A program made the translations under genes and the position numbers. The notes beneath the pieces were generated by a model. The model had not been told where the DNA came from, did not search any database, and saw only the letters and a program-made list of their open reading frames with translations. A stretch of DNA of 60,224 bases, the filler included, from Hausera hauseri (Eukaryota): NCBI GenBank assembly GCA_046269625.1. It is 12 parts of 12 records of this genome, joined end to end, with 100 filler letters (N's around TTAATTAATTAA, not from the genome) between each part and the next. Parts side by side here need not be neighbours in the genome. Positions count along the whole stretch, not along the records: positions 6,747 to 10,718 come from JBJURY010848191.1; 11 more parts are not named here. The stretch is one strand, 5' to 3'. Below, in pieces: positions 871-31,662 of this stretch. Position 1 is the stretch's first letter, and each line of letters begins with the position of its first letter.

Positions 871-1284
871 TCAATAGCTAAGTCCCATTGATCATATTAA
901 TTGTTGTGCCCACATTGGCCCGTCCAAAATGAAGAAAAATTATTATGCAAAAATTTTTGTTTAGATATTGCAGTTGTTTTTGCAATAAAGTCAAACTTTT
1001 GTTCGTTTTCTTGTAACATAATACGTTATCTGACTTCCACTCGAATTTTCTTAATATAATTTATCAGGATTTCGCAAACCTAAATTTGGATATTTTGAAT
1101 ATCCTTGTAGAGCATGATCGAAGCGAAAGTAAGTTTTAATCAAAACAATTCTGATATCTGTCTGTAGAATGATAACAATAAGAAAATTCACATTGATGTC
1201 AGAAGTGGTATTCCAGAGACCGTCGTTCCTGGAACCCACCATCATTTCCATGCACGCCGTTCTTTTTCAACAACTGCAGTGCAT

Positions 1285-1480
1285 TATCATGGATCCTTAT
1301 CCAATTTACATAGTCAGACAGTCATTATCTTAATCCTACAGACAGAACTCTATCGTTCTTCGCCCTCCTACTAGTACAGTTTCTGCAGGACCTTAATGGA
1401 ATTGCAGAAATCTTTGATTCAAACGATCCGTACAAGAAAGCATCAAATTTCCTTCTGAAAATAACAGACTCAATGCTTAA
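1285..1480 (+). pseudogene. Short decayed fragment of family A Gypsy gag
   Basis: ~1404-1475 translates AEIFDSNDPYKKASNFLLKITDSM, similar to ADILTSSNPYDMLYESVLHITDPSI in the 11568 gag. Confidence 0.5.
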
Positions 1481-1995
1481 GATTGTCGATGCATACTGTT
1501 GTGCCCATTAGGAATGCTCAAATGCTTTATTCTATTTTTCCATTTTCTTATTTTACTGTTTTCTCATTTGTGATTTTACTTCATGTAATCGCCAGCGAAT
1601 AAACAAGTTTTTGACACTTTTATCTCATAATGTCATGGCGTCCACTGGAACAACAATAGTCAGGTTCGCGTTCTTACGTGCAAGTTTTGTTATAATGTTC
1701 CACCCAAAATATTCATCGAATATTTGGCATATAGCCTTGAACTAATACCGAGTGTGTGATTAATATTCGAAATTCATATACTGTGGAATTATGTCGTTGT
1801 ATATATTGTTACGTAAAATTAATGAAAGATAATGAATATTGTTGTATACATGGTGGCAAGAAAGGAATTGATAAAAAAAGAATATTGAATATTGAGTTTT
1901 TTTAAATGTTGAATACTAATGAAATTTTGTTTTGGATTTACTAATAAAACTTCGTGTTGGATTTAATGTCTTCTAATACGTTCCGCATTTAATTA

Positions 1996-3980
1996 ATGAA
2001 ATCACATTGGCGTCAGAAACAACGAAAGATCTCCAAATATTCATACATTGTTGAAATTTACGATAAAACCGTGGACACTAGTCATTATTTATCAATAAAA
2101 TCAAATTATACGATCAACATCAACATTGTATCCACAATCTACCCAATTTACGTAAGGGAGAATGAAATAGCCTCGACAACGGTTATAGTTTTCAAAGTCG
2201 AAAATCAGGATGAAGAAGATTCAGTGTTCATGAAAATTGAAAATCCTCAACCGTATTTTGATCCGTTATCAGATGGAACTCTTGTTACGTCCAATACTAA
2301 TACGGATTATGAAAAAAGACAGTCAATATCGTTAAATATCACTGCCACAGATAACGGAAATCTATCCATAACGAAGACATTTGAAGTATTTGTCAAAGAA
2401 GCAAATGAATTTCAAATTCAACTAAAACCAGATACGATCAAAGTTTATGAAAATGCTCCAGAGAATGAACCCCTAGCAATATTTTCTGTCAAATATTATG
2501 ATATTGGACAAAACATCTCATTCGCTTTGACGGAAAATTATCGAGGAAACTTTAAATTAATTCAAAATCAACTTTGGATTAATGAGAATGAATATTTTGT
2601 TTGGAAGAAAAGTTAGCATATTGTTTAAATTATTTCGAAGATCCCCATGAATTTTTGTTGACTATTCAAGTAACCGTTTCTAGTTCATCATCGAAATCCA
2701 CGGAATTTACTGTGAAAATTATTTTTCTGGGCATAAATCATCCATCCATTGCTTTGTCGTTAAGTTACATTCGCATACATTCCAATGTTACGATTGGAAC
2801 AAATATCGGATATATTACTGTGACAGACGAAGATCCAAATGAAACGTTCTCGTATACTACATCGATTCCGAATTTATTTCAAGTTGATGAAAATTTGCAA
2901 TGGCAAACGGTGGTTAAACTGAAGTACGAAGAACAATCTGCATACGACTTAAATGTGACTTGTTCTGATAGCATGGATCAGTCAATAAATCGAGTTTATC
3001 CCATATTCATAGATTACATGAATGAAGTTCCTGTCACATTAAGCCTAGATGAATATAAAGACAAATTTGATATCAATTCAAGAAAACCGACTACTAAACT
3101 ATTTGTGTGGCATCATTTACAGTTTTAACTCAGATTTGGATGAAAACTTATCAGTTTCTTGTGATGCTGACGTAATCCGATGTGTTAATACACGTTGTCA
3201 ATCTACCTACGAAGTCGGTACCGTGTGCATGACTGATATTCGAGTTAATTATCCGAGTCAGTTGGATCATGAACGAAATCCAGTTATAGCACCTCATGTA
3301 AAAATCATGGACAACAATTTGAAATCTTTGAAATTTATTTTACAACTAAGTGTAACTGATGTGGATAACAACGAAATGGACATAATTTTCAACAGATCGG
3401 TTTCAAATGATATTAAAGTTGCTGAAAATTCAAAAAACATGTTTCTTGGTAACTTCAATATTTCGAATAGTGGTCCACTGAGCAGGTATACGTTTGATGC
3501 GTCAACCGAATTTGGCCAGTACTTCGTAATAAAGAATAAACCGAATTATGGGTATCAGACGATGCAAAATTTGATTTCAAACAAAGTGATTCGATTGTGT
3601 TACTTATTTCAGCTATGTCCGCATCAAATTTTACCAAGCCATATTCAGTAGAAATATCAGATGCTAACGACCAACCGGATTCTTTAGTTTTAAGACCAGC
3701 TTTAATCAAGGAAAACATTCCACCTAGAAATGGATTGTCTACGTTGGTTGTATCAGATCCCGACAATCCAAGACAGAAACAGATATTTACCTTTTTCTTG
3801 TTAAAGAATTTGGATACATTCCATATCAAAGGGAGAACTCTATACCTTCTACGAAGTGCTCAAATTAATTATGAAATGGTAGCACATTACACACAACATA
3901 ACGTATACACCTGTCTATTTCTTACTATCCACAACAGACAGACTCTTTTCACAACAACAAAAAGAGAAAATAAGAAATGA
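1996..3980 (+). pseudogene. Cadherin-repeat (protocadherin/Fat-like) gene fragment, frameshifted
   Basis: Four overlapping ORFs carry cadherin hallmarks: DYE..., ATDNG, V.ENAP, VTDED, LKYEE, LDHE, DANDQP, VSDPD. They are joined by apparent 1-nt indels at ~2600, ~3050 and ~3600. Confidence 0.85.
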
Positions 3981-4439
3981 TGTCTATTTCGAACAGGCAA
4001 ATTGGCGAATGATTTAACATGATAGACGATTAAATCTTTGCGATGTTGAGTTACATGACCCTACTTATTCAAATGTAACTAGAGAGGATGATTCAGGACC
4101 CGATAATTTCGAATCGAACACAGTTAAAGTAGAAAATTTGGTCATCTGCCGTATCTTTCGGGAAATTTTAATAGTGGTACAGTCTACAATAATATATCTG
4201 CCGTACCCACAGCACGAGACATTTCTACCATCTGTGGAGAGACCAGTGCATGATGAGGTAGGATTTGTCATTATTTGTTATTCGCTCGGTAACTATTTTT
4301 CTAACCCATTTCTAAGTAGAGACTCCTTTTTATTGTTTTTTCTATGTTTTTGTTTTCGACATGTTCACTGTGGGTGCAGCTTCACCTTTAACCCATATAG
4401 TCTACACAATTTCGTCCTACACTCATTTACTATTCACTA

Positions 4440-5680
4440 AAATAGGCGATACACTAGGGGTACCTGAAAATTACTTATCTCGAAACGAACCTTTTGTGAT
4501 GAGTGTTTTAAAATACAAATCGGGTGAAGCGGTTGTGATGGCTAATAAAAAATGTTTGGCCCACTTGATAAGAGTAAAACTTTTGCAAAAGATGATTTTA
4601 CATCAACAGAAATAAGGTGTAGGTGTGAAAACAAGATGTGGAAGCCTTTAAAGAAGCTTTTCGATAGTGAGGTTGTTAAAGCTAGAAAGCTGTCTGATTT
4701 CACAAATAAATTCCATGCTACTTTAAGAATGGGTTTAGCAACACTGGTTAACTTTACTCAGAGTAGCTTTATATCAATAAATAAAAAACTTGACATACTT
4801 GGTTTAAAGAAAGCGTATACATCATTCTCTCTAATAGGCCATTTGCCAAAACTGGCGTACGATCTTGTTGCAATAATTGTTCCATTGAGTCAAACGGTAC
4901 AGACTCTGTCACATTTTACGCTCATCCCGAAAGATGCATTTAAATCAAATATTCGAGCGATTTTTAACTGTAAAGACAATCTATCTGAGCAAATAGTGAA
5001 AATTTTCTATCGATTTGTTCTTGATTCTCAGTCACCGATTAGAGATGATGGCAGACCTGTACCATTTTCAAACCATGAACCAACATTTGCACAGCTTTTT
5101 GGCAAACCATCATTGATCTTGAGTCTTGAACCAATTCATGACCGTTTGGTTGAGCATGTTCAGTTAGATTTTGACCCTGACAATCTTAAATTAGACAATA
5201 TTAAAGATGATGTCGCGCAGGCCCTATTCAAATGAGGGTACTTTCAATTGGTAAGTATTTGTATCGATCCTAATAACGGGCAACCTCCTAGAGGTCTTCA
5301 GTTCCTTCTTCCTGTCAGTGATTCTAAACAAATTACTCACGACATCTTTCTTAGAACTTACTTGGCACAATTCAAGCTGAAAACTAACTATGTCGTATGG
5401 AATGTGATACTTAGCGAGGGGAAACCAAGAGAAATTCATGAGTTAATCGATCATGAATATACAAACAATGAAACTAATTCACCATATTCCCTAGCTGTCC
5501 CCGACAGTTGGATGACAAAAGTTTTCCGAGTTACAGTATTTGAAAAACCAAAAACTTTAACCAAAAAATATATACATGAAATGATAAGAATTAACACATG
5601 CTGTATAACGTCTTTTTATTACCATCCGGAAAATTAAGAATCTGGTCTTTCCTCATGACGGGTGGTTTTATTACAGTACA
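4440..5680 (+). pseudogene. UGGT: UDP-glucose:glycoprotein glucosyltransferase fragment, disrupted, no introns evident
   Basis: MFGPLDKSKTFAKDDF, VAIIVPLSQ..., IFNCKDNLSE..KIFYRFVL, FDPDNLKL, CIDPNNGQPPRGLQFLL and FKLKTN match UGGT motifs (GPL...F..DDF, DPL, FYRYVL, DLDNI, GQPPRGLQF.L, FQLKAN). There is a frameshift at ~4550 and a stop at 5233-5235. Confidence 0.85.
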
Positions 5681-5746
5681 TCCCATACTCTTGAGTCTCA
5701 AACAAACCACGGCACGATAAACAAATCAACCTTTTGTCTTACATCA

Positions 5747-6646
5747 ATGTGCCCCACATTATGGTGTGTTTCGTTACCACACCAACCACTTGAATTTACA
5801 CTGGCTATTTTTTTCCTTTTCTTGCTAAACAATCGCCATTTCCTAACATGCAGAATAACAAACTCTGTAGATGCATCCTACCTATACAACTATGTACTAC
5901 ACACCGCAAACATCTCCGACTTCTATCTTACCTACAATAATCTGCCCGTAACTAACGCCAACCTTTGTAAACTTTCTGCATTTTCAGCCCATTGTATCAT
6001 CATCCACATACACTTTCGCATACGTGGGGGATGAATTCCTCTCCCACCATAGACACCACTGATAAAAATACTCAAAAAACGCCACATTTTCCTTTTCACC
6101 AAAAATCATTGACCGTAACTACTCCATCTTCTTTCAGCAATTATGCTTCTACAACCTCGCCAGTCAAACACACGTCTCAGTGCACAGAGTACTTTATTGA
6201 CCACGAACAGTCTAACAAAACGTGGCTTAGCTTCCACAAACTCTGGTTACAATCTAACAATATCACTGATCCTGTAACCAAGGCCAATAACCTGCTTTGC
6301 CTTTTACCAACATCTGTTAAAACGGCCATTCACGATTTGCTCGATATCTTTCAGAAACCTGATCCATACACGCTTCTCTACAACGCCGTTTTGAAACTTA
6401 CGGAACCATCTATGGACTCAATAATTCACCGTTTCTTCAAAGACAATGCAATGGGGAGCAGAAACCATCTGATTTTCTTCGAACCTCACTCGTGCAGCTA
6501 CAAACACTTGGCGTAACTAAACAACATAACGCCGATCTTTTGCGACGGTACTTCTTGAACGCATTGCCCATACAAATTAGGGCCTTACTCACTGTCGTTG
6601 AAGAATCGACAACACTAGATAAATTGGCCGAACTGGCGGACAAAAC
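5747..6646 (+). mobile_element. Family A (CsRN1-like Gypsy) copy 1: ubiquitin-like domain + gag, truncated by contig end
   Basis: FYLTYNN...IHFRIRGG is followed, after a 1-nt slip, by MNSSPTIDTTD...CTEYF...LRRYFLNALPIQIRALL...LDKLAELADK, homologous to the other family A gags. Confidence 0.85.
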
Positions 6647-6746
6647 NNNNNNNNNNNNNNNNNNNNNNNNNNNNNNNNNNNNNNNNNNNNTTAATTAATT
6701 AANNNNNNNNNNNNNNNNNNNNNNNNNNNNNNNNNNNNNNNNNNNN
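6647..6746. other. Artificial contig spacer
   Basis: 44 N + TTAATTAATTAA (stops in all frames) + 44 N. Confidence 0.99.
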
Positions 6747-7696
6747 TGTGCAACGAAACAAAGAAAAGTGAAAAACTATATAGCAGAATTAAAACCAATC
6801 GACGTACCAGATAGACCTATGCAGGCTATGTGTATGGATATAGTAGGACCTTTACCTACGACTCATAAAAATAATAAATACATTGTGACATGCGTAGATC
6901 GTTTAACACATTTTGTGGAACTGATCGCACTAATTGACCAAAAGGCGGAAACTCTAGCCGACGCAGTAGTAAGGAAAATCATCTGCAGATACGGACCACC
7001 CGATCAAATACTAACCGATAGAGGAAGAAACTTTACAAGCAAATTATTTGACAAAATTTCTAAAATCTTCAAAATTGAACAACTAACCAGTACCGCTTAC
7101 TACCTTCAGTGAAATGGGATGGTCGAACGTATGAATGCAACGGTTATACGTGTCTTGTCAACCGTAGTAGAGAAGTATCAAAAGGATTGGGATGAATTTT
7201 TAGAAGGAACACAATTCGCTATCAGGATTTACACCATTTTTTATGATGTATGGACGTGAAAAAATTTTGCCTACGGACTTAGGAATGACTCCGTATTACG
7301 CAAATCCAGAAGATTTGGAACCCAACTTCGCAGAAGTTTTACAAATCAGATTACAAAAATGTTGGGATATAGCCAAGACGCTTACTTTTGAGTATCAAGA
7401 GCAATTTAAGAAACAATACGATAAAAAGGCCAAACCTCACGATTTAGAAAACGGAAAGTGGGTTTACGTACACTATCCAGTTGCCAAGAAAGGTACATCA
7501 TTAAAACTTACTCGCACCGGATGAGGACCTTATGAAGTCATTCGAACCACACCAACTACGGTGTACATTAATAAAAATGGCAAATAAGAGGTAGTATCTA
7601 TTAAAAGTTGTTAAAACAGAAATAAAGCCAGAAAGACGTTACAATTTGAGATCTAGCTCATATCAAGATAAAAAGAAAACGAAGCATCCTCCATAA
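6747..7696 (+). pseudogene. Family B Gypsy integrase core and C-terminus
   Basis: MDIVGPLP, TDRGRNF, NGMVERMN, G*GPYEV (GPY/F motif) and ERRYNLR tail; in-frame stops present. Confidence 0.92.
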
Positions 7697-9057
7697 TCAA
7701 TAGACCAATATCGTATGTTCAAATAATTTTAGCACTATCGCTAATTGCCTCCTACATTCCGAGAACACAAGCTAAATGGTGGTACGACAGCTACGGAGTT
7801 CGAAAAAGTGAAACGGAAAAAAAATCAACGGTCAAAGAAAATCAAAAACAAGAGGATGTAAGACGATTACAAGCAATGAGGATCCACTATTACTCACCTA
7901 ACTCTACATGCGTTGGATTTAAAACACGGAAACCACATCGGAATTTTGGAAGGATCCAAATTACCTTAGACGATGTGACAACAAAAGAAACAAAAAAATG
8001 TGACTTTGAGTCCGAAGAACGCACGGAATGTTGCGACACAAATTTCTGACATACTTATAATTTGACTTATCGTCTGTACCTACCAAAATTATCTAGATTT
8101 TATGAAATAAAACCACAATTTTAACTAGTTATTCCTGCTTGGAATAGGCATCACGAAGTAAAACTAAACGAAATATTGCGATCCACTGACCCAGACATAA
8201 TACTGCTAAACGAAAATATCCAGAAAATCTCTGTGAATAAGAAAAGACAATGTCTTCAAGTAAACACTCGGATGGAACTAACCGTCAGTCGCTAAATCAG
8301 TATCGTGTTTGAGACATTAATAGGACCCACTCCGAAAATAGAATATTGTTCCATTCGTGCAGGTGTACAACATCCATGTTGTAAAATACCCGTGAATCAA
8401 GAATTTAAAATAAGATTTGACTTATACGAGTTACGGCTTAATCAACCAAGCATACAATTACGAATCTACTATCCGGAAAATAGAATCTGGAAACTCTCAA
8501 TGAAAACCTCGACTAAAAAGTCGACCGCTCGATTTATCACGACGGACAATATATTTAAAACAAAACTTGAAGACATACCTATCAGATATTTGGTCCATCA
8601 GAATAGAATAGTGTTCTTTGTTGAGGAACGATTAAACTACAATGTAGAAATAAACTGTCGAACCTTATATGACAGACAAAAAGTAAAACTTATACAAAAT
8701 ACACGACAAGTCGAATGTAATACATTAAAACCCCAGACAGAATACATAATACAAATTAATGCAGCAGGAAGGCAAAATCAGACAATCACCTTACACACTT
8801 TAGCAGAAAGAATTTACCCAGATTCACAAAAAGATCAAGACATAGAAAACATAATTACTACAAATCCGATAACACAAAAAACATTTGAATTAACAACTCT
8901 ACCTATTGTACCAATCATCAGAGTATCAGCATTCATCTTATTAATATTGATTGCGTCATTTTATATAATTGCCAAAAATTGCAAAAAACAGCGTAAAAAT
9001 CGTGATAGAAGGATAAGGGTGGTTTACCAACATGACTTATATGATGAAATAACCTGA
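7681..9057 (+). pseudogene. Type-I membrane protein with signal peptide, FN3-like ectodomain, TM and Tyr-motif tail (family B 3' gene)
   Basis: Single frame with 3 internal stops (8047, 8122, 8293). Signal-like VQIILALSLIASYIPRTQA, paired CC modules, FN3 signature LKPQTEYIIQINA, TM IVPIIRVSAFILLILIASFYIIA, basic KNCKKQRKNRDRR, tail LYDEIT. Confidence 0.7.
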
Positions 9058-9130
9058 CAATTACAGACCAGGTTATTCTGTCATCAGATAGTGAAATTAT
9101 TATGTAATGAAACAAAGGTCTGTCTTAGGA

Positions 9131-9155
9131 TTAACCTTATTTTGTTTTATTTCAG
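9131..9155 (+). promoter_or_regulatory. Putative 3' splice site (branch point + polypyrimidine tract + CAG)
   Basis: TTAAC-CTTATTTTGTTTTATTT-CAG, with an ATG 13 nt downstream (ATG at 9169). Confidence 0.55.
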
Positions 9156-9168
9156 ATTGGTGAGTATC

Positions 9169-10718
9169 ATGGCAACCTGCAGCACTTCATACTTGGACAT
9201 CGATGGATTTTTGCAAACAAACGCGACAGTTATAACCCCACATTCCAAGGCCATCTACAGTCAGATACACTTAGAGATACAGAACAAATCATCAATAGAA
9301 TACAATAAAGTAGATGAAATACCCAACAGTTTGAAAGGAATCGTAGAGGAAAATAGAGTAATACGGTTGTATGCCATGCGAAATAGTGAAGATTCTCGGT
9401 CTTACAAATTACGGAATGTGAGTTAGAACGGAACAGTGACATATATATGCATCTAGCAAAAGGCGATATCTATTATAGATTGACAGAACAAAACTGGGAT
9501 TCGAACAAAGGGCGACAGTCTAAATTTAGCACTTTTAAGCTGTGCGGAGAAAGCTTAATTGAGAAAGAAAAAAAATTAAGAGTCTTAGCCCTACCTATGA
9601 GACTCATGATAGAAATCACCTGTGAAGAAATTCCGATGATATCCCTGCCTTCCTTGATATTCCATCAGTACCCAATGGAGAATCAAATAGGACAACATTT
9701 GGGGTCCTATAAACTGGTGCAGGATGGGCGAAACATCCGTATAATTACCACAAACTACAGAGAAGGAGATGATGGAAATTCCATTCCTATTGAAGTTTCC
9801 ATTAGAGACATGAAGAAAATAGAAATATATTCTAGGTTGATTGCCCCTCGAAAAAAAGTAAAGAAAACTTATGCGCAAATAACAAGCATAAAAAAGACGA
9901 ATTGATAAACGGGAAAGACGCAAAAACTGTAGAAACAGAACTAAACTACTGTTTGTATGGTTGCATGGTTGAGGGATTTTAGATCCAAGAACAAATAAAC
10001 AAATAGAAAATAAAGCCTAAAAATATAGCAGAAATTCAAGAATTTTGGGCTCACCCTAAAATCAGAGAAAAATGGACAGTGTAGACCGACACGCTCCTAT
10101 GACCATGGAAACCCATTTCAAGGCCATGATAGAAATTATGATAGGAACTCATTAGAGAATTAATCGGCAATTGTCAACTACAAAGAGAAGCCAATACCTA
10201 CGCGATATTTATGCTACAATCAGATGGGATCACGAGTGGTCACCATCAAACCCTGAAAATAACCTGCAAAGCAGTATGAATCTAAAGGAAGTGAATTCCC
10301 ACGACCGAAAACAATTCCATCCATATTCGCCAACGCGAATTGTCGAACCCAAAAAGGATAACAGTATGCAGATTACAGTATCAAATAAGGATAAAAATAT
10401 ACAATATACTGTTTTAAACCGAGAAGATATTGCCCAACAAGAAGCAAGTACTACCACATATAGATTCCAGGCACCCATAAAAACAAAGAAAATAGAGAGT
10501 CATCAAGGGACTCCAATTAAAAAGCGCAAATTGAGAGGCCCATCTGCAAAAAAGAAAAAGAGATCACTATTCGGATTTCTAAAGAAGAAAAAAAAAGGAG
10601 CAGTTCAAACTATACAAATTCTTACGGAAGTGAATGTTTTCAAAAGGAAGTAGGATAAGGAAATAACAACCAAAGAAACCCAAAAGGACATGGAAGAACA
10701 ACCTAGCATTCTGGTAAT
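9169..10718 (+). pseudogene. Unknown accessory ORF of family B, disrupted, with basic NLS-like cluster
   Basis: ORFs 9091..9426, 9447..9905 and 10171..10653 appear to be pieces of one gene (1-nt slips at ~9408 and ~9895). Contains KKRKLRGPSAKKKKRSLFGFLKKKKKG. Confidence 0.5.
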
Positions 10719-17833: not shown

Positions 17834-19057
17834 CATCATAAAAACGGCATAAATCCTGTTGCTAGATGTGGCGCAATATTAATTGCAAATTGCGTTCCTT
17901 CCAAAAATTCATCCCAATCTTTTTGGTCCTTAGCCACTACTGTTGACAGTATACGTATGACGGTAGCATTCATCCATTCGACCATTCCGTTACATTGAGG
18001 ATGATATGCAGTAGTTGTTAATCGTTCGATTTCGAATATCTTAGTGATTTCCTCGAATAGTTCGCTGGTGAAATTTTTTCCTCGATCTGTGGGTATCTGT
18101 TCTGGGGGCCCGTATTGGCAAATAATCTTTCTTACTACGGCTTCTACTAAAGTCTCGGCCTTTTGATCTATCAATGCTATCAACTCGACAAAATGAGTTA
18201 GGCGATCGATACACGTCAAGATATACCTATTGTTCTTGTGAGTCGTAGGAAGAGGTCGTACGAATCCATTCACATGGCTTGCATGGGCCTGTCGGGTACA
18301 TCAATTGGTTTCAATTTGGACATATAATTTTTCGTCTTCTTTTGTTTAGTCGCACATACTTCACAGGTGTTTATCCAATTTTTCACATCAATATAGATAC
18401 TAGGCCAAAATTATTTATTCATTATTCTTTCTAATGTTTTTTCCAAGACATATGTCCGGCTAAGTATGAATCATGTTTTGACATTAGTACTTCAGTTCGT
18501 ATACTTTTGGGATAACTATCAATTTTCTTTTTTTCCCTTCGTAATATAAGGTGTCTCTTTCGCTCTCGTCATTTAAGACATAATATTTGTGTCCATGCCT
18601 GTGTAAATGTTTCTTTAACTGTCGTCCTTTTGATGTAATATCCCTTTCAGTAAATTCTATAATCTGCTGGATAACTTTATCCTTTCTCTGCTCTGTTGAA
18701 ATCTTGATGGCCCTATCTATTGTTAACGCGCGTTGGCGGTTTATTATCTCCTCAAGTTGACTTTTCTTCATTACAGTAATTGCGCTTGTTTTAGTCTTTA
18801 ATCTTGATAGTGCATCTGCGTCTACATGTTTGTTCCCTGCCTTATATTGAAATTCAATGTTGTAACTTGATATTTCCTTGATCCATCTGTTAAGTCTGCA
18901 TGTAGGGTTATCTACTCGCCCTTTTAAGGTTTTGACGGCCTTGTGGTCCGTGACAATTATAATTTTCTACCCATATACATAAACACTAAAATGTCGAAGT
19001 GCTTCTTTTACAGCTAGAGTTTCTAATTGGGTAACAGAATAATTTTTCTCGACCTTC
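17834..19057 (-). pseudogene. pol: Family B RNase H C-half + integrase (copy with internal deletion)
   Basis: Collinear with 27524-28750: EKNYS..LETLAVKEAL, TDHKAV, HVDADALSR, PTTHKNN..DRLTHFVEL, YHPQCNGMVE. Homology to pol stops abruptly at 19057. Confidence 0.92.
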
Positions 19058-19899
19058 TACTACTACATCGTAGCGATTCATCATTTCCTTTTTTATAAAT
19101 TTTAGTCCATGCTGATCCGAGATTAATATAGTAGGTGTAGGGTGTTCCGATACATCTTCGCGTGTCCTTGAATTAGTCTCCGATTTGTCTACATATTGTT
19201 TCCAGGTGGTTTCATTAAACTTTAGCTCCTTAATTTTGATAAAGTTACAGCTTCTTCCAGAGGGAGATTCCCATATTATAACAGAACTTCTAAAAGCACA
19301 GGATTCGTCTTGTAAGTAGCATTTCTGATTCTCAGTGTGTAACTTAGTAACACTATGAAATATTACCTTCTGTAATCGCATTTCTGATTCGAAGAAATTC
19401 ACAACTATCACATTTGGTTCTAATCCTTTTCCGGTATCGTATTCTGCTCCATTACAATGTTCGCTATGCATATTCAGCCTTCCAGCTACTACTTTGTATG
19501 CTCTGATTATCTTCCCTGGTTGCATTTCTAATTTCATATTGTCCCATTGTACTCTTCCAGACTCTTTAGCTTGTTTGCAGTGTTGGCGTTGTAAATTCAT
19601 TGGAATTAGTGGAGTAGTTGGCTTGATTATGGAGTAATGTCCGTGTATTAGTCCACAGTGGAAGATACTATGTGATCGTCTCAACATGCACTCCATTCCG
19701 TCTAACGATATCAATTCTTGCTGTTTGATACAGGAAGTAACTTTTCTCTCGTTTCCAATTTGTGCGGTCGGACATCCTCGCATACTTCCAGGTCTATTAA
19801 GGAATATCTCTGTCCTAATTTAAACTTATCGCAATCATAGACGGTTACCGCGCTAATGTGCTTCATTAGCATCATTAAGGCAAGCAAGGTAATTAGCCA
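19058..19899 (-). pseudogene. env: Class III (chuvirus/herpes gB-like) envelope glycoprotein, signal + N-terminal half
   Basis: WLITLLALMMLMKHISA|VTVYDC...YSLIDLEVC...EC.L.RS..IFHCG..GH...C..A..SG...C.GAEY...CYLQDESC....IIW......C. This Cys/motif pattern is typical of chuvirus-like glycoproteins. Frameshift at ~19735. Confidence 0.75.
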
Positions 19900-21759
19900 A
19901 TTTGATTCATTTTTTCGACCTCCTACGTCTGACGTTGTCAGGCTACGTAACATATAGTCGAGTTTATTGTTGTTTCGTTTGTCTTTTTCCTTGTCAAATA
20001 GTCTTGCCCAATTTACTTCGTCAGGCATTCTTGCTGCTTTCCGTGCTAAGCTTATAGCCCTATTGATCTCATTCTCTTGATTAGGATTGATTTTGATAGC
20101 TAAATATAGTAATACTTTTCTCAATTCTTCATTCGTGTTTTCTACCACGATCTTTTCTATTACTGACTCGCCGGATAAGTTACTTTTTGATAGTTTGAAA
20201 CGTGAACTTCTAATCATTTTGGCTGCATCGAAAATTATCTTTTCTTTATCATCCATCACATCTCGAAAACTAGAATAATTCACAATTCATATTAAATTTT
20301 TCATTAATTCGTTTAATTCCTCGTTGTCTGGGCTAAGAGTCGGAATCGACATCTGTCTCAATTCTCTAATTAATTCTCCGTTGTAATCCACTTCTTCTCG
20401 CATTTTTCTATGTCTGCCTACCGGGCGTTTTGGTCTTGGACCCTTAGCGGTTATTTGACTCAGTGGTACTAAATTTGTGTCGTATTGTTCCTTATATTCG
20501 TCTGTTTGTAAATACTCAAAATATAGTGCAGCGTCTCGAACTCCCATGATTTGTCCTACGCATTGTTCTGTTTTGGCTTTATGTGTAGCTTCTTCTTTTG
20601 TCTGTTTGTTAGCTATTACTACTATTATCCAATATGTTTCGTCAGGAATAATCCCAACGTCTGTTAGTTGTTCTAGGTCATCGAGTATTCTACCTCTAAA
20701 ATAAAATCTGTAGTTTAACTCGTTCGTTCCACCATTGTTTACTACCCATTCTCTTACGTCCTTTACGTAGGAGTATGTAGTCAACTCGCATTCTTTTTCG
20801 TCCATCCATTCGGATGACACCATTACCTTCATCGTCACCACAGGTTTAGCCCTCAAGATTTTAACGCAATTCCTTATCAAAAGTTTCGGCACCGCACTAT
20901 AAATCGTGTTTTCGCTAGATAATTTAGTTAAAGTTGGAATAAATTGTCCTAATTTATTCTCAGTAATATTTACATTAATTAGTTCAATCAAATCCCTTTC
21001 AGTTAGCGCTGAATACAGTAGTATATCCACATTGAATCTCCTGTTCTGCGGACATATTTCTATTGCGTTTAGTTGTACTGCAGTTATAGGTTTTCCGGCA
21101 AGTATTGCGTCGAAGTATGCATCCCATTCGGATTCATTTCCGGCATCCGGAAGTCGATCGTCCGCTAAAGCCGTATTGGCTCTTTGAATATTTTCCTTAA
21201 TTTCCTTTAATCTAGGCTGTATTTCTTTCATTTGCGTACTTCGGAAACCTGCTCCGTTTCCACAGGCATACTGTATCATTTTCAGTAATTCGCTTAATTC
21301 GTTCGGGCCGACCAGCCCTTTCTGGTGATAATCTGTCAATTCAAGGATCACATCCTTTTGCCATCTTTGTACGAATTCTCGTTTATTCTTAATCTCTAAT
21401 TCGGTAAAAGCATATTTGTTTCGATAGACTTCGAGCTCCTTTGTTATTTTCTCTAACTTTGTTGCTTTTTGTTTCGTCTTGATACATATTTCTTCTACTT
21501 TCTGTATCTTAGGCATCAATTGCATCATCTGTTCATCACTGATTTCTGCCATTTCCACCAATAAATAGGCTAACTCATACAGCTCATTTATAACCTTTGA
21601 ATCAGGGTCTACTGCGTCCGATAATTTCTTTACTAACTTGTATTCCTGAAAACTAAAATGTGGGTCGTTCCCTATTTCTATCAACTTGGTATGGAAATTC
21701 TGATCTGATCCGGCCATCCATTCTTGAGGTTTGTGCAAAAACTTTATTGCGTTTGTCAA
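19900..21759 (-). pseudogene. Family B N-terminal polyprotein segment: helical/coiled region + internal ubiquitin-like domain (20614-20832)
   Basis: ORFs 20287..21759 and 19711..20283 share a frame, separated only by TGA at 20287-20289. UBL: MKVMV...VKDVR...YRFYFRGRILDDLEQLTDVGIIPDETYWIIV. Confidence 0.65.
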
Positions 21760-21889
21760 CGTATCTCGATGCCCTGGATAAATGTCCAGTATTTCAATGT
21801 CTTGTGCAAAATTTCGTTGATTGGTTTTCCTGTTAAGTATTGTACTACTTCTAGTCGAACAATCTTTAACTTTGAGTTCACATCATAAA

Positions 21890-22687
21890 TCATATTCCGT
21901 TTTCCGTAAAATTCGTCTCTTCGATCAGTTTGTATATTTTCTCCATCATCAACGCTTCTCGTTCCCTTTCCGTAAATTTTAGTTGTCGTAGCGCTTCGAA
22001 TTGAGTACGGATGTCGGTTTCTATCCGTATTGTGCCAAGGTCATGCGCACTTTCTTCTAAATGTTTTATTACCGTTGGTTCGCTTTGTGGAAATTCTGTT
22101 TTGCGGTCTTCTACCAATTTGCTTAATCGCGTTATTAATTCGTACCATTCCGACAATTGATTTGCGATGATTGGTTTTGCTGTTATAGCTCTATCTAACA
22201 TCTTATGTACATCTCTTAACTCATCGTTCGGCCCTCTTAGAAAGTTCATAATCCGGGCGATATAATTAAACTCGTTTTTATACTCGTCCAATTCTACTAT
22301 ACAAGCCTTTATTACGTATTGAGTATCCTCGTTGTTTGGGAACATAATTCTCAAAAATTCGTTAAACCCGTCCGGATCTCTGTCATATGCCGGCAGGTTT
22401 AGGGAATCGAACGTGAAAATTTCCAGCTTCTGCGCTACTGGTGGATTATCTGCTGCTATATTATTTACGTTTTTTAGCTCTAAATTTGCTTTATTTACTT
22501 TAGGTTTCTCAAGTGTAATTTTAAACTGTTTATTTTGCATGACAACTTTTAGTTTGTTTCTATTCTCGGAGTTTGAACGTTTATCTACTTTTTCTGTTTC
22601 TCTATATATGTTTCGACGTGTCTCACGTATAGGTGAATTGTCCTTTAGTATATGATTTATTCCTGACCTATCAATGTTTGTTCTCTA
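21890..22687 (-). pseudogene. Putative Gag/capsid-like ORF of family B
   Basis: LNLPAYDRDPDGFNEFL resembles the LP.FDG.P....EF motif at the start of LTR-retrotransposon capsid domains. The frame is open about 50 codons upstream of ATG 22540. Confidence 0.45.
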
Positions 22688-22725
22688 TTAAGTTTTGCTT
22701 ACTTATTCCCGTAAAAATAGCCTAT

Positions 22726-27523: not shown

Positions 27524-30500
27524 ATGAAGAATGGGGTAAATCCTGTCGCTGGATGTGGCGTGGTATTAATTGCAAATTGAGTTCCTTCTAAAAATTCATC
27601 TCAATCCTTTTGGTCCTTTGCTACTACTGTTGATAATATGCGTATGACTACAGCATTCATCCGTTCGACCATTCCGTTACACTGAGGGTGATATGCGGTA
27701 GTTGTTAGTCGTTCGATTTCGAATATTTTGGTGATCTTTTCGAATAGTTCACTTGTGAAATTTCTTCCTCGATCTGTGAGTATCTGATCTGGGGGGCCCG
27801 TATCGGCAAATAATTCTTCTCACTACGGCTTCTGCTAAGGTTTCGGCCTTCTGATTGATTAATGCTATTAACTCGACAAAATGAGTTAATCGATCAATAC
27901 ACGGTAAGATATACTTATTGTTCTTGTGAGTTGTAGGAAGAGGTCCTACAATATTTATCGACATGGCTTGCATGGGCCTATATAGCACATCAATAGGTTT
28001 TAATTCGGTCATGTAGTTTTTCGTCTTCTTCTGTTTAATTGTACACACTTTGCAGGCATTTACCCCGCTTTTCACATCAATGTAGATACTAGGCCAAATG
28101 TATTTATTCATTATTCATTCTAATGTTTTCTTCCAGGACATGTGTCCGGCCAAATATGAATCACGTTCTGACATCAGCACTTCGGGGCGAAAGCCTTTTG
28201 GGATAACTATTAGTTTTCTTTTTTTTCGCTCGTAATATAAAATATCTTCATTGCCCTTGTCATTTAAAATGCGATATTTATGTCCATGTCTGTGTAAATG
28301 TTTCTTTAACTGTTGTCCCTTTGATATGATATTCCTTTTAGCAAATTCTATAATCTGCTTGATAACTTTATCTTTCCTTTGTTTTATTGGGATTCTAATT
28401 GCTTTATTCATCCTTAAGGTGCGTTGGCGATCTATTATTTCTCCAAGCTGACTTTTTTTCATTACTGTAATCGCACTCGTTTTAGTCTTTAATCTTGATA
28501 GAGCATCGGCATCTACATGTTTATTCCCTGGATTATACTGAAATTTGATATTATATCTGGAAATTTCTTCGATCCATCTGTTGAGTCTACATGTTGTGTT
28601 ATTTTCTCGACCTTTCAAAGTCGTAACGGCCTTGTGATCGGTGACGATTATAATTTTCTGCCCGTATGCGTAAACGTTGACGTGGCGAAGTGCTTCTTTT
28701 ACGGCTAGAGTTTCCAATTCGGTAATAGAATAGTTTTTCTCGGCCTTCCTCAAGGAACGTCCTCCATAACCAAATCGGGTGCTCTAATTCTTCATATTTT
28801 CTTTTCTGCGCCAATTCATATCCAATGCCTTTATTACTGGCGTCTGTCTTGATTATGAAAGGTAAGTTAAAATCTTGATATCGTAAAACAGGTTCACTTG
28901 TTAATATCTTCTTCATTTCGTCGAAGGCTTTCTGTTCGACATCTGTCCATTTCCATTTAATTTCTTTCTTCAGCAAGCGGTATAGAGGTGCATTAATTTT
29001 TGAATTATCTGGTACATAGGTTGCGTAATATCCGCAGAGTCTCAACCAGTGTCTTAATTCCTTCTGGTTTTGTGGTTCCATGCAGTCTGATATTTTATTT
29101 AGCAGCGATTTATCTGGCTTCGATCCTCCTTCTACAACTATATGGCTAAGGTAGGATACTGCGTCTTGAGCCCATTTGCATTTCTTCGGATTCAACTTCA
29201 ATCCGGCTTGTTCCAATCTCATCAATGTATGTTCGATATACTTTAAATGTTCCTCCTCGATCCTTGATGCTATCATTAAGTCATCTAAATACACAAAAGC
29301 ATGATCCAATCCCACTAGCATTTTGTTCATCATTCTGGTAAATATGACTGGTCCAGTAGTAATACCGAATGGTATGATGTTAAATTCGTAAACAGCATCG
29401 TGCGTTTTAAATGCTGTCTTATAACGGTCTTTATCTTCAATCTCCACTTGCAAATATCCGGATTGTAAGTACAGAGTGGTAAACCATTTTGCTCCTGAGA
29501 GTCTGTCTAAAGCCTTTTTGACCGACAGTAGTAAAAAGGAATCTTTCATCAAGAGGTTATTTAAAGCTCTGTAATCAATACAAAATCGATGTTTCGTAGT
29601 ACTTTTCTTCTTAACCATGAGGATTGGTGAATACCAAGATCTATATTTGAGCCTAATTATATCTGCTTTAAGCATTCGTTCGACTTCCTTCGTTATTTCG
29701 GGTCTTAGAGAATGTGGCGAAGGGTACCATTTTGGCATCTTTTGGTATTCCAAGTTTATTTCTTTATTCGAACCGGGCTTTTTCTTGATCGGGATTGTCA
29801 GTTTTAACGCTTTTGCTGTACCGATATCTTTGTCCTTAGCAAAAATCGATTTGTAGCGGCACAATTGTTTGTAAAATCGACAATAAGATTCGGGAGAAAA
29901 TTTAGTTTCGACATGAGGTGGAAATTCGGCATACTTGTAACGCTTTTCTTCAATAGTTATCAACGACACCCTATACATGTCTCCCAAGGTAATATAAGCA
30001 TGAAGCTTGACGGGAGTCGGCGCATTATTAACTATTTTGATCAGCACTCGACCGGAGTGTACTCTTGTTAATACATTGCTGGGTAATATATTCGGATCTA
30101 ACGTATCTCTTGTTTCTAAATGTACGGATTGATCGTCATCTTGCTGTATCTGGGCATAAATTATCATTTCTGTTCTCGGTAGAATGTTTTCGTCAACTGT
30201 TATCCACACCTCTCCGAATTTCCTATCCTTAGCAATTTTCACGCCTTTATTTGGTCTGATTTCGATTAACTTCCCTGTTTGTAAATCGATTGCTATATTT
30301 GGTAATCTTTTCAGTAGATCGCATCCTAGAACTACATCATCGGTTAATTGCTCCATGACTGCAAATTCTTGATGGAAAAACTGTTTAACTATTTGGACTT
30401 CTGGGTTCCATTTAAACATCGGTTTCGACATTTGACCAAAAGCTCCTGTACTTCCTGGATCTTTCGTAGACGGTGGGTATAATTGTCCTCTCAGTGTTTT

Positions 30501-30734
30501 AGGTATTGAATCATTTTTGATGTAAGACATCTCGGATCCTGTATCGATTAAGGCATAAACTTCCAAATCCTCAATTATTATTTTGGTGAAGGGTCTTCCT
30601 TCTATTATTGTTCCGATACAGTTTGATGCAACTTTTTGGCGTTTAGTTGCTGATATTTTATGTCCGTTGATTCGTATTTCTGGAGAGGATACTATATTTT
30701 CCGACAGCTGTCTTAATGCTTCGTATGTATATAA
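27524..30734 (-). pseudogene. pol: Family B pol: PR - dUTPase-like spacer - RT - RH - INT
   Basis: ALIDTGSE, RFCIDYRALN, SGY.QV, PFGI, VYLDD, TDAS..GIG, EKNYSITELETLAV, GHMS..KT, IVGPLP. The frame is open from 30734. Confidence 0.95.
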
Positions 30735-31491
30735 CTAGTTGTTTCCTATGTGCAATTTTTCCGCTTCATGTGTACTAATTAACGGTTCTTGATTGTTCGT
30801 GTGTAGTTCAGTATTCTGGAAAATTTTTAACCTTGGATTGTCCCAAACCGTTGATCTAGTTTCTATATTTTGAGGTTCTCTCGGAGAATACAACATCTTG
30901 GAAGCATCTGTGGATTGTCGGTAGCACATATTCCGTAGAATCCCGTAACGTTTCGTTCCTTCATAAGGGTCTTCTACATTAATTTTCCTTTTATAGATTT
31001 CCGTCTGATATAATCTCATTGATTGTTTGTCGCAGTCTTCATGGAATGGGGCGGTAGGGGGTATCATTGGCAATGGTGCTTTAATGACAGAGTATGTCTC
31101 ATGTCTGTTTATTCCTGAAAGTACTTCTCCTCCCTTAGTCTCGTCATTATCTGAATTATTTCTTCGTGTATTATGTTTCGTAAATTTCTGCTTCTGCAAG
31201 AATATAAGTCTTCTTCTTCTTTTACGATTATAATGACCGACATGACGTTATACGTCGGATTTCAATCTGTTTTCTTCGTATGCCTTTAAGAATTTTCCAA
31301 AGGGCGCTATGATTACAGTCAAAATTTTGCACGAAAATCCGGTCAACGTAAATATTTCATACCCATTAATTACGGCTTGGATAAATGCCTTGATCATTTG
31401 TATTAGAAAATATATATCTAAGAATCCGAAAATTAAGAATTTCCCCAAATTTTGTATAGTATTTCCGTGGTTACGCGATGGTAATGATGCT
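30735..31491 (-). pseudogene. env: Envelope C-terminus (membrane-proximal/TM) + cytoplasmic tail, in frame with pol
   Basis: (KIWG)KFLIFG..IY..IQMIKAFIQAVINGYEIFTLTGFSCKILTVIIAPF matches the chuvirus-GP C-terminal pattern W..F..FG...IK..I...I.GY....G.S..LL, followed by RKRRRR. ORFs at 31448, 31199 and 30566 share one frame. Confidence 0.7.
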
Positions 31492-31662
31492 AATAATGCG
31501 CCGACTCCCGTAAAGCTTCATGCTTATAATATTTTGGGAGACATGTATAGAGTGTCGTCAATAACTACTGAAGACAAGTCTTACAAGTATGCCAAATTTC
31601 CACCTGATGTTGAAACTAAGTTTTCCCCCAAATCTTATTGTCGATTTTACGAACAATTGTGC
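31492..31662 (+). repeat. Inverted, diverged duplicate of pol segment 29859-30029
   Basis: NNAPTPVKLHAY.ILGDMYRVS.IT.E.K.YKYA.FPP.VETKFSP.SYCRFY.QLC on the opposite strand. Confidence 0.9.

Follow-up and report, generated by a model that had tools for sequence, protein, structure and literature searches.

In Burro/GYPSM1, giant gypsy elements of planarians, Env is read in frame after gag and ahead of pol and is preceded by a ubiquitin-like domain, and accessory domains occur within the polyprotein or as additional ORFs, according to the available text of PMC6431247. Elements of the Burro/GAG-ENV-POL kind are further marked by more than 20 kb between the LTRs and by a dUTPase-like domain separating PR from RT. 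In the flatworm GAG-ENV-POL errantiviruses, whose ENV is of the HSV/gB type, env precedes pol (available parts of PMC13524379). Herpes gB requires partner glycoproteins, and in the discussion section of that paper, as available, entry by gB errantiviruses stands unexplained (PMC13524379). Accessory cargo in Burro-like elements and transmembrane ORFs after pol are already known from the available parts of two papers (PMC6431247; PMC5408684). Here, we describe a broken gene lying directly behind a Ty3/gypsy integrase of Hausera hauseri, a gene whose predicted product is a type I membrane protein.

The frame behind the integrase and its element

The window, i.e., the whole stretch of 60,224 nucleotides that was analysed, consists of 12 short contigs (4-7 kb) with N spacers between them and is not one continuous locus. 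It is animal DNA, judged by its cadherin, UGGT and hAT pieces, and has many gypsy relics; at 1993-5637, decayed and apparently intron-poor cadherin and UGGT pieces lie immediately 5' of a gypsy gag. The gene sits on a contig in which neither an LTR nor a long repeat was seen and no fusogen is present. Its features are listed here together with one from a sister contig (P0002 and P0003 are protein relatives described below).

6747-10718: contig holding the frame, with its 5' end inside the integrase core and its 3' end in decayed coding sequence
6747..7696, + strand: 3' part of a Ty3/gypsy integrase, decayed (stops, frame changes); Pfam rve E 2.6e-16
7672..9057, + strand: frame of 461 codons for a predicted type I membrane protein, with three in-frame stops and no Met ahead of the signal
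7717..7773, + strand: signal-peptide-like segment ending T-Q-A, predicted cleavage after T-Q-A (hydropathy; best conserved block with P0002)
7855..8094, + strand: module 1, predicted beta-sandwich, C..C..CC (strands in the model; likeness to module 2)
8191..8442, + strand: module 2, predicted Ig/FN3-like beta-sandwich, C..C..CC (pLDDT 59-72 by blocks; VIA)
8479..8556, + strand: Thr/Ser/Lys-rich linker between modules 2 and 3, longer and richer in P0002 and P0003
8563..8817, + strand: module 3, predicted FN3-like domain with L-x-P-x-T-x-Y and two Cys (Pfam fn3 E 0.13; Atlas)
8914..8970, + strand: predicted transmembrane helix (hydropathy peak in the frame, P0002 and P0003)
8974..9054, + strand: short tail with a juxtamembrane Cys, a basic stop-transfer run and a terminal Y-x-x-I-T (conserved in 3/3 proteins)
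9041..9084, + strand: hairpin predicted in the RNA, with the gene's final codons and stop as its 5' arm (z -2.62, 1/200 shuffles)
9131..9171, + strand: splice-acceptor-like site with a pyrimidine tract and CAG at 9153-9155, then ATG at 9169
9169..9905, + strand: remains of one or more accessory frames further downstream, for which 34 candidates yielded no relative
10156..10653, + strand: open frame of 165 codons with a Lys/Arg-rich C-terminal run (possible nuclear signal), no Pfam match
18986..19899, - strand: 5' part of a putative gB-type env with an internal signal, in a sister element, cut by a deletion into RNase H

A sequence-only reading of this DNA had placed a frame of about 455 codons directly behind the RYNLR tail of the integrase, with no Met ahead of the signal, and had assigned to it a signal, two C..CC modules, an FN3 signature, a transmembrane segment and a basic run; all of these were found. 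The frame spans 461 codons (7672-9057), a length beyond chance, as shuffling the bases of the contig 300 times produced no comparable frame longer than 264 codons. It is interrupted by stops at 8047-8049, 8122-8124 and 8293-8295 (stops 1 to 3), and its first in-frame Met is residue 69, past the signal. Hydrophobicity peaks at residues 16-26 (2.58 in an 11-residue window) and 415-433 (2.57 in a 19-residue window), and the T-Q-A end of the signal was read by the -3/-1 rule for signal peptidase cleavage. Cysteines occupy residues 80, 110, 120 and 121 and again 194, 226, 236 and 237, forming the two C..C..CC modules, followed by residues 329 and 349 and by residue 437. The FN3 signature, LKPQTEYIIQINA, lies at 8725-8763. 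Two details of the earlier description needed adjusting: the proposed Thr-rich stalk is enriched, but modestly (6/33 Thr), and a second Thr/Ser-rich stretch (9/29 Thr/Ser) sits between modules 2 and 3; likewise, the proposed terminal LYDEI is present, but the true end is one residue longer, LYDEIT-stop, behind a basic stretch at 8974-9018 and with the Tyr codon of Y-x-x-I-T at 9040-9042. As a whole, the predictions support a type I membrane protein with one or more FN3-like domains, dead in this copy.

The integrase ahead of the frame, which gives a weak match to Pfam MLVIN_C (E 0.26), shares 80-82% amino acid and 75% nucleotide identity with the integrases on two sister contigs, 17834-22725 and 27524-31662. 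Its RYNLR tail (7637-7651) is read in a different frame from the membrane protein, and this frame closes at a stop at 7694-7696. The RYNLR ending may resemble the chromatin-binding motif of foamy-virus Gag, the letters of which do not appear in the available passage of PMC6042332.

The sister contigs indicate what kind of element this is. Contig 17834-22725 (- strand) opens with a long frame (531 amino acids) containing a weak ubiquitin-like domain (Pfam ubiquitin E 0.01, below the cut-off); an internal signal, hydrophobic in nature, and a Cys-rich glycoprotein come next, and a deletion then leads into RNase H and the integrase. The glycoprotein (18986..19899), which gave no Pfam or PDB sequence match, resembles, by eye alone, the gB-type ENV of Smed errantivirus C1a in the available supplement 2 of PMC13524379. 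Contig 27524-31662 shows the Ty3/gypsy pol order, namely PR, an insert of ~90 amino acids (in which no dUTPase match was found), RT, RNase H and integrase; at its end, part of pol is present as an inverted duplication of 172 nt at 90% (31491-31662 and 29859-30030). From these features, the element is likely a high-copy Ty3/gypsy of the planarian Burro/GAG-ENV-POL kind, which points to a flatworm as the probable host. As this layout has env ahead of pol, the position behind the integrase is probably an accessory slot and not the canonical env position that had been claimed for it, while a fusogen, whose presence is deduced from the sister contigs, was probably encoded upstream of pol.

Coding sequence past gag, env and pol is indeed present, as the frame itself and as decayed frames reaching to 10653. 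The acceptor-like site between them (9131-9171) is one of three YAG sites on the contig with at least 14 pyrimidines per 20 nt; four bases on lies a donor-like GTGAGT, followed by the ATG at 9169 that opens a decayed accessory frame. Such an arrangement would suit expression of accessory genes by splicing.

Relatives and other copies

Two relatives of the predicted protein were found, both stop-free singletons without a protein name. P0002 (479 amino acids, on a contig of 4.9 kb) was the only match among 3458 candidates in a word search (E 2.3e-79), and P0003, a C-terminal piece of 189 amino acids on a contig of 16.2 kb, was the sole addition in a profile search of 1.84 billion representatives, which gave two matches in all (E 2.2e-49). 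The frame is 39-46% identical to them, the three pairwise identities being 39%, 46% and 49%. P0002, called from its own Met immediately ahead of the signal, retains the signal and its T-Q-A, each of the ten cysteines of the ectodomain, the transmembrane helix, the Cys next to the membrane and Y-x-x-I-T, and P0003 retains every feature within its covered part; N-glycosylation sequons number 3-4 in each full-length protein and none in P0003. Conservation of all covered features in two stop-free relatives at such identity suggests that the protein has been under long selection. No named host relative was found among the 1.84 billion representatives, and no related locus by protein alignment in 195 metagenome stretches or 119 viral contigs, by integrase (0/539 and 0/30) or by env (0/7); a phage collection gave no match. 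Longer forms fused to integrase were absent from 6245 longer candidates, which is a weak test. By sequence comparison, this is an orphan membrane protein family with three members in the searches run.

Further copies were sought in one public run (X1, with 0.32 of words present), which may be related to the source of the DNA and counts as one study; no RNA run was among those listed for the sequence. A total of 6131 short X1 contigs were placed on contig 6747-10718, covering 30 of 30 bins, with a depth of 10,732-53,670 over the integrase, 899-8,667 over the gene, 21,879 in bin 9008-9140 and 124-1,228 beyond it; summed depth is not equivalent to copy number, and the region of the gene is multicopy. 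Stops 1 and 3 do not appear to be family traits, as they are absent from most of the depth (1068/1095 and 1005/1024, respectively, read otherwise). The listing of differences carried by at least 50% of X1 depth has 35 entries, and none of them gives a majority alternative at stop 2. P0002 is open at the position of stop 2, which is followed by CTAG (8122-8128), and CTAG after a stop is a context favouring read-through. Were stop 2 common to the family, a short secreted form would result, comprising the signal and module 1. After subtracting three differences upstream of the frame and two in stop codons from the 35, 14 of the remaining 30 are silent compared with 9.3 expected (P about 0.05), a mild excess in support of selection.

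The X1 data also bear on the junction with the integrase. There, 1816 of 3430 in depth (3 contigs) differs in length such that the integrase tail and the frame come into register, a reading deduced from the frames of contig 6747-10718, and about half of the depth is out of register. Since several X1 contigs cover the junction and about half of the depth is in register, a fusion to integrase is plausible. A 1-nt slip hiding such a fusion had been suspected before; the half of the depth that is out of register and P0002, with its own Met, speak against a fusion. None of the 8 X1 pieces listed (of 906) spans RYNLR to the signal, and so the linkage in other copies rests on the cover of the junction itself; by this cover, from pieces that are short, the frame appears to lie behind the integrase beyond the present copy.

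Predicted fold and cytoplasmic tail

Both AlphaFold models were poor (mean pLDDT 43.4 and 45.5), with three beta-rich units visible. Searching Foldseek with the full model gave five matches at E<=0.001, all of them fragments of three FN3 domains (fibronectin 10-12 and 12-14, gp130 D4-6), with a best E of 9.9e-5 and a TM-score of just 0.13. The two-module model gave no match at this threshold; FN3 pairs of cytokine receptors and fibronectin were common in its top rows, all above E 0.001, with antibody Ig domains intermixed. In VIA, module 2 matched best an Ig-like bacterial protein (Z 5.8) and many FN3 domains at Z 4.3-5.1, with 9 of 48,161 chains at Z 5 and none at Z 8. For module 3 with the membrane part, the Atlas gave scores of 0.92 against FNDC9 and 0.91 against FNDC5 (recognition 2516); the whole protein scored weakly there, 0.88 at best (recognition 1885).

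At the sequence level, module 3 matched Pfam fn3 at E 0.13 with 12.9-13 bits, below the curated cut-off of 25, and P0002 gave no fn3 match. L-x-P-x-T-x-Y is the tyrosine-corner motif of FN3 domains. In module 3 it reads LKPQTEY, LSPQTEY and LRPRNDY in the set comprising the frame, P0002 and P0003, and it is degenerate in modules 1 and 2. By sequence, modules 1 and 2 form a pair of repeats (hhalign E 0.005, a score reached in 0/40 column shuffles), and the likeness of module 3 to them is non-significant (score reached in 4/40 and 24/40 shuffles). The models, low in confidence, point to three Ig-like sandwiches; module 3 is likely an FN3 domain, and modules 1 and 2 plausibly are. The claim of an FN3-like protein keeps the three-FN3 Foldseek matches and the tyrosine corner on its side, against the poor models and a Pfam score below cut-off.

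Class I cytokine receptors are marked by the WSxWS and Box1 motifs, and both are absent in 3/3 proteins. For the proposed receptor mimic or decoy, no specific match, no WSxWS and no close host relative emerged. A library of viral folds gave no match at E<=0.001, and no fusogen was among the matches listed by Pfam or by the fold searches with these poor models, an absence that by itself excludes nothing; the predicted architecture looks unlike that of a viral fusogen, whether class I (F) or class III (gB).

In short cytoplasmic tails, YxxPhi is a sorting motif; a Src-SH2-type site has an acidic +2 residue, and an ITIM has S/I/V/L at -2. The tail motif reads YDEI, YDRI and YGRI in the three proteins, conforming to YxxPhi in 3/3, with an acidic +2 residue in just 1/3 and the -2 residue of an ITIM in 0/3. 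Judged by sequence, Y-x-x-I is more readily read as a YxxPhi sorting signal than as a site for SH2 domains or an ITIM. Of the two motifs that had been suggested for YDEI, the endocytic YxxPhi one is conserved, but the SH2-binding (YEEI-like) one is not. Because the same codons form an arm of the predicted hairpin (9041-9084), in the bin with the highest X1 depth 3' of the integrase (9008-9140), part of the conservation of the tail may be at the RNA level, and the hairpin is possibly a cis-acting signal. Three weak X1 joints from upstream, all ending at 9040, adjoin the hairpin; they were left out, having sides of <30 nt and one contig each.

Possible roles and comparison with known systems

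Tentatively, and with slightly less than even confidence, we read the locus as a broken accessory gene whose predicted product, a membrane glycoprotein of type I, has three Ig/FN3-like domains and is probably an attachment protein beside a putative gB-type fusogen. Partnership with a class III fusogen had been suggested before; a putative gB-type env lies on sister contig 17834-22725, but the one link between the two is integrase likeness, and no single sequence joins the FN3-like gene and the fusogen. In part of the family, the protein would form the C-terminal end of the Pol polyprotein. Led by an internal signal, its ectodomain would pass into the ER and be released by signal peptidase, a route suggested by the internal signal ahead of the sister env, and the viral protease would free the integrase; a separate start is also possible, as shown by the own Met of P0002. 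The tail Cys and the YxxI motif may sort the protein to the membranes of particle budding, and it could then travel with the gB-type fusogen and bind target cells for it, which is the least certain step. That all of this formed a two-part entry machine made as a single polyprotein threaded through the membrane (Gag region, signal, gB-type fusogen, Pol, second signal and three-FN3 receptor-binding glycoprotein) we consider unlikely. If it did, the second signal would also tether the integrase to the membrane until cut, and the missing attachment partner of gB-type errantiviruses would be supplied.

Other roles can be assigned to the same protein. It may act on the host cell, as a surface decoy, adhesion or receptor-interference protein lacking a signalling domain and cycled by YxxI, in keeping with the cytokine-receptor FN3 modules among its fold look-alikes and with a Burro cargo that is mostly host-modulating (BIR, BCL2, MATH/TRAF, ankyrin; available text of PMC6431247). 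Yet WSxWS and Box1 are missing from 3/3 proteins and no specific receptor stands out, and reading the gene in register with Pol would couple the amount of protein to that of the particle proteins, so that we regard a host-cell role as somewhat unlikely. We hold it improbable that the gene is a captured host FN3 receptor gene, a passenger without a role for the element: the libraries may contain few host proteins of flatworms, but no named host relative turned up among 1.84 billion representatives, the gene is full length and intron-free, two of its stops are absent from most copies, and the excess of silent differences, mild as it is, also speaks against a passenger.

It is highly improbable that the protein is itself the fusogen, that is, a genuine env at the canonical position, in a subfamily without a gB gene. 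Its location after pol and its signal and transmembrane helix would suit such a role, as would the fact that the 5' half of the element is not on contig 6747-10718. However, the predicted architecture is one of three small beta-sandwiches with low-complexity linkers, close sister integrases accompany an upstream gB-type env, and transmembrane and signal features alone are insufficient for an env call (PMC5408684, section 3.2, as available).

Set against known systems, the attachment reading combines features that have been described separately. With Burro/GYPSM1, the sister contigs share their order, with Env between gag and pol, and the accessory coding, but the cargo named in the available text (AIR1, Smc, MATH/TRAF, BIR, BCL2, ankyrin and midasin) includes no second membrane glycoprotein, unlike the frame at 7672-9057 (PMC6431247). 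The GAG-ENV-POL errantiviruses of Platyhelminthes are alike in gene order and, by eye, in the sister env, while the main text, as available, treats gag, env and pol alone and uses the word 'fibronectin' 0 times (PMC13524379). The ORF3 cargo of bdelloid LTR retrotransposons resembles the present gene as non-env ORFs after pol, some with a transmembrane segment; these are, however, transmembrane ORFs of 210-230 amino acids or enzymes, which replace env and do not accompany it, and no FN3 ectodomain is named for them in the available text (PMC5408684).

FNDC9, FNDC5, gp130 D4-6 and the fibronectin repeats are alike in predicted fold and in the layout of signal, FN3 and transmembrane segment. At an identity of about 10%, these animal FN3 proteins have no sequence-level relationship to the frame, which is distinguished by its CC disulfide pattern and by being borne on a retroelement. 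Among paramyxoviruses, attachment and fusion are the work of separate glycoproteins, HN and F. Herpes gD and gH-gL, which act with gB, likewise offer no more than a works-like analogy to two-protein entry (available parts of PMC13524379). No account of a gB-carrying element with a second, FN3-like surface protein turned up in the literature searched, as far as available; Grohme 2018, Jurka 2007 and figures may show one. Even as host-modulating cargo, an orphan membrane family of three members would join the Burro inventory, which in its available text lists no non-env membrane cargo (PMC6431247). As a conserved second surface protein, it would be a concrete candidate for the partner in entry of gB-carrying Ty3/gypsy elements.
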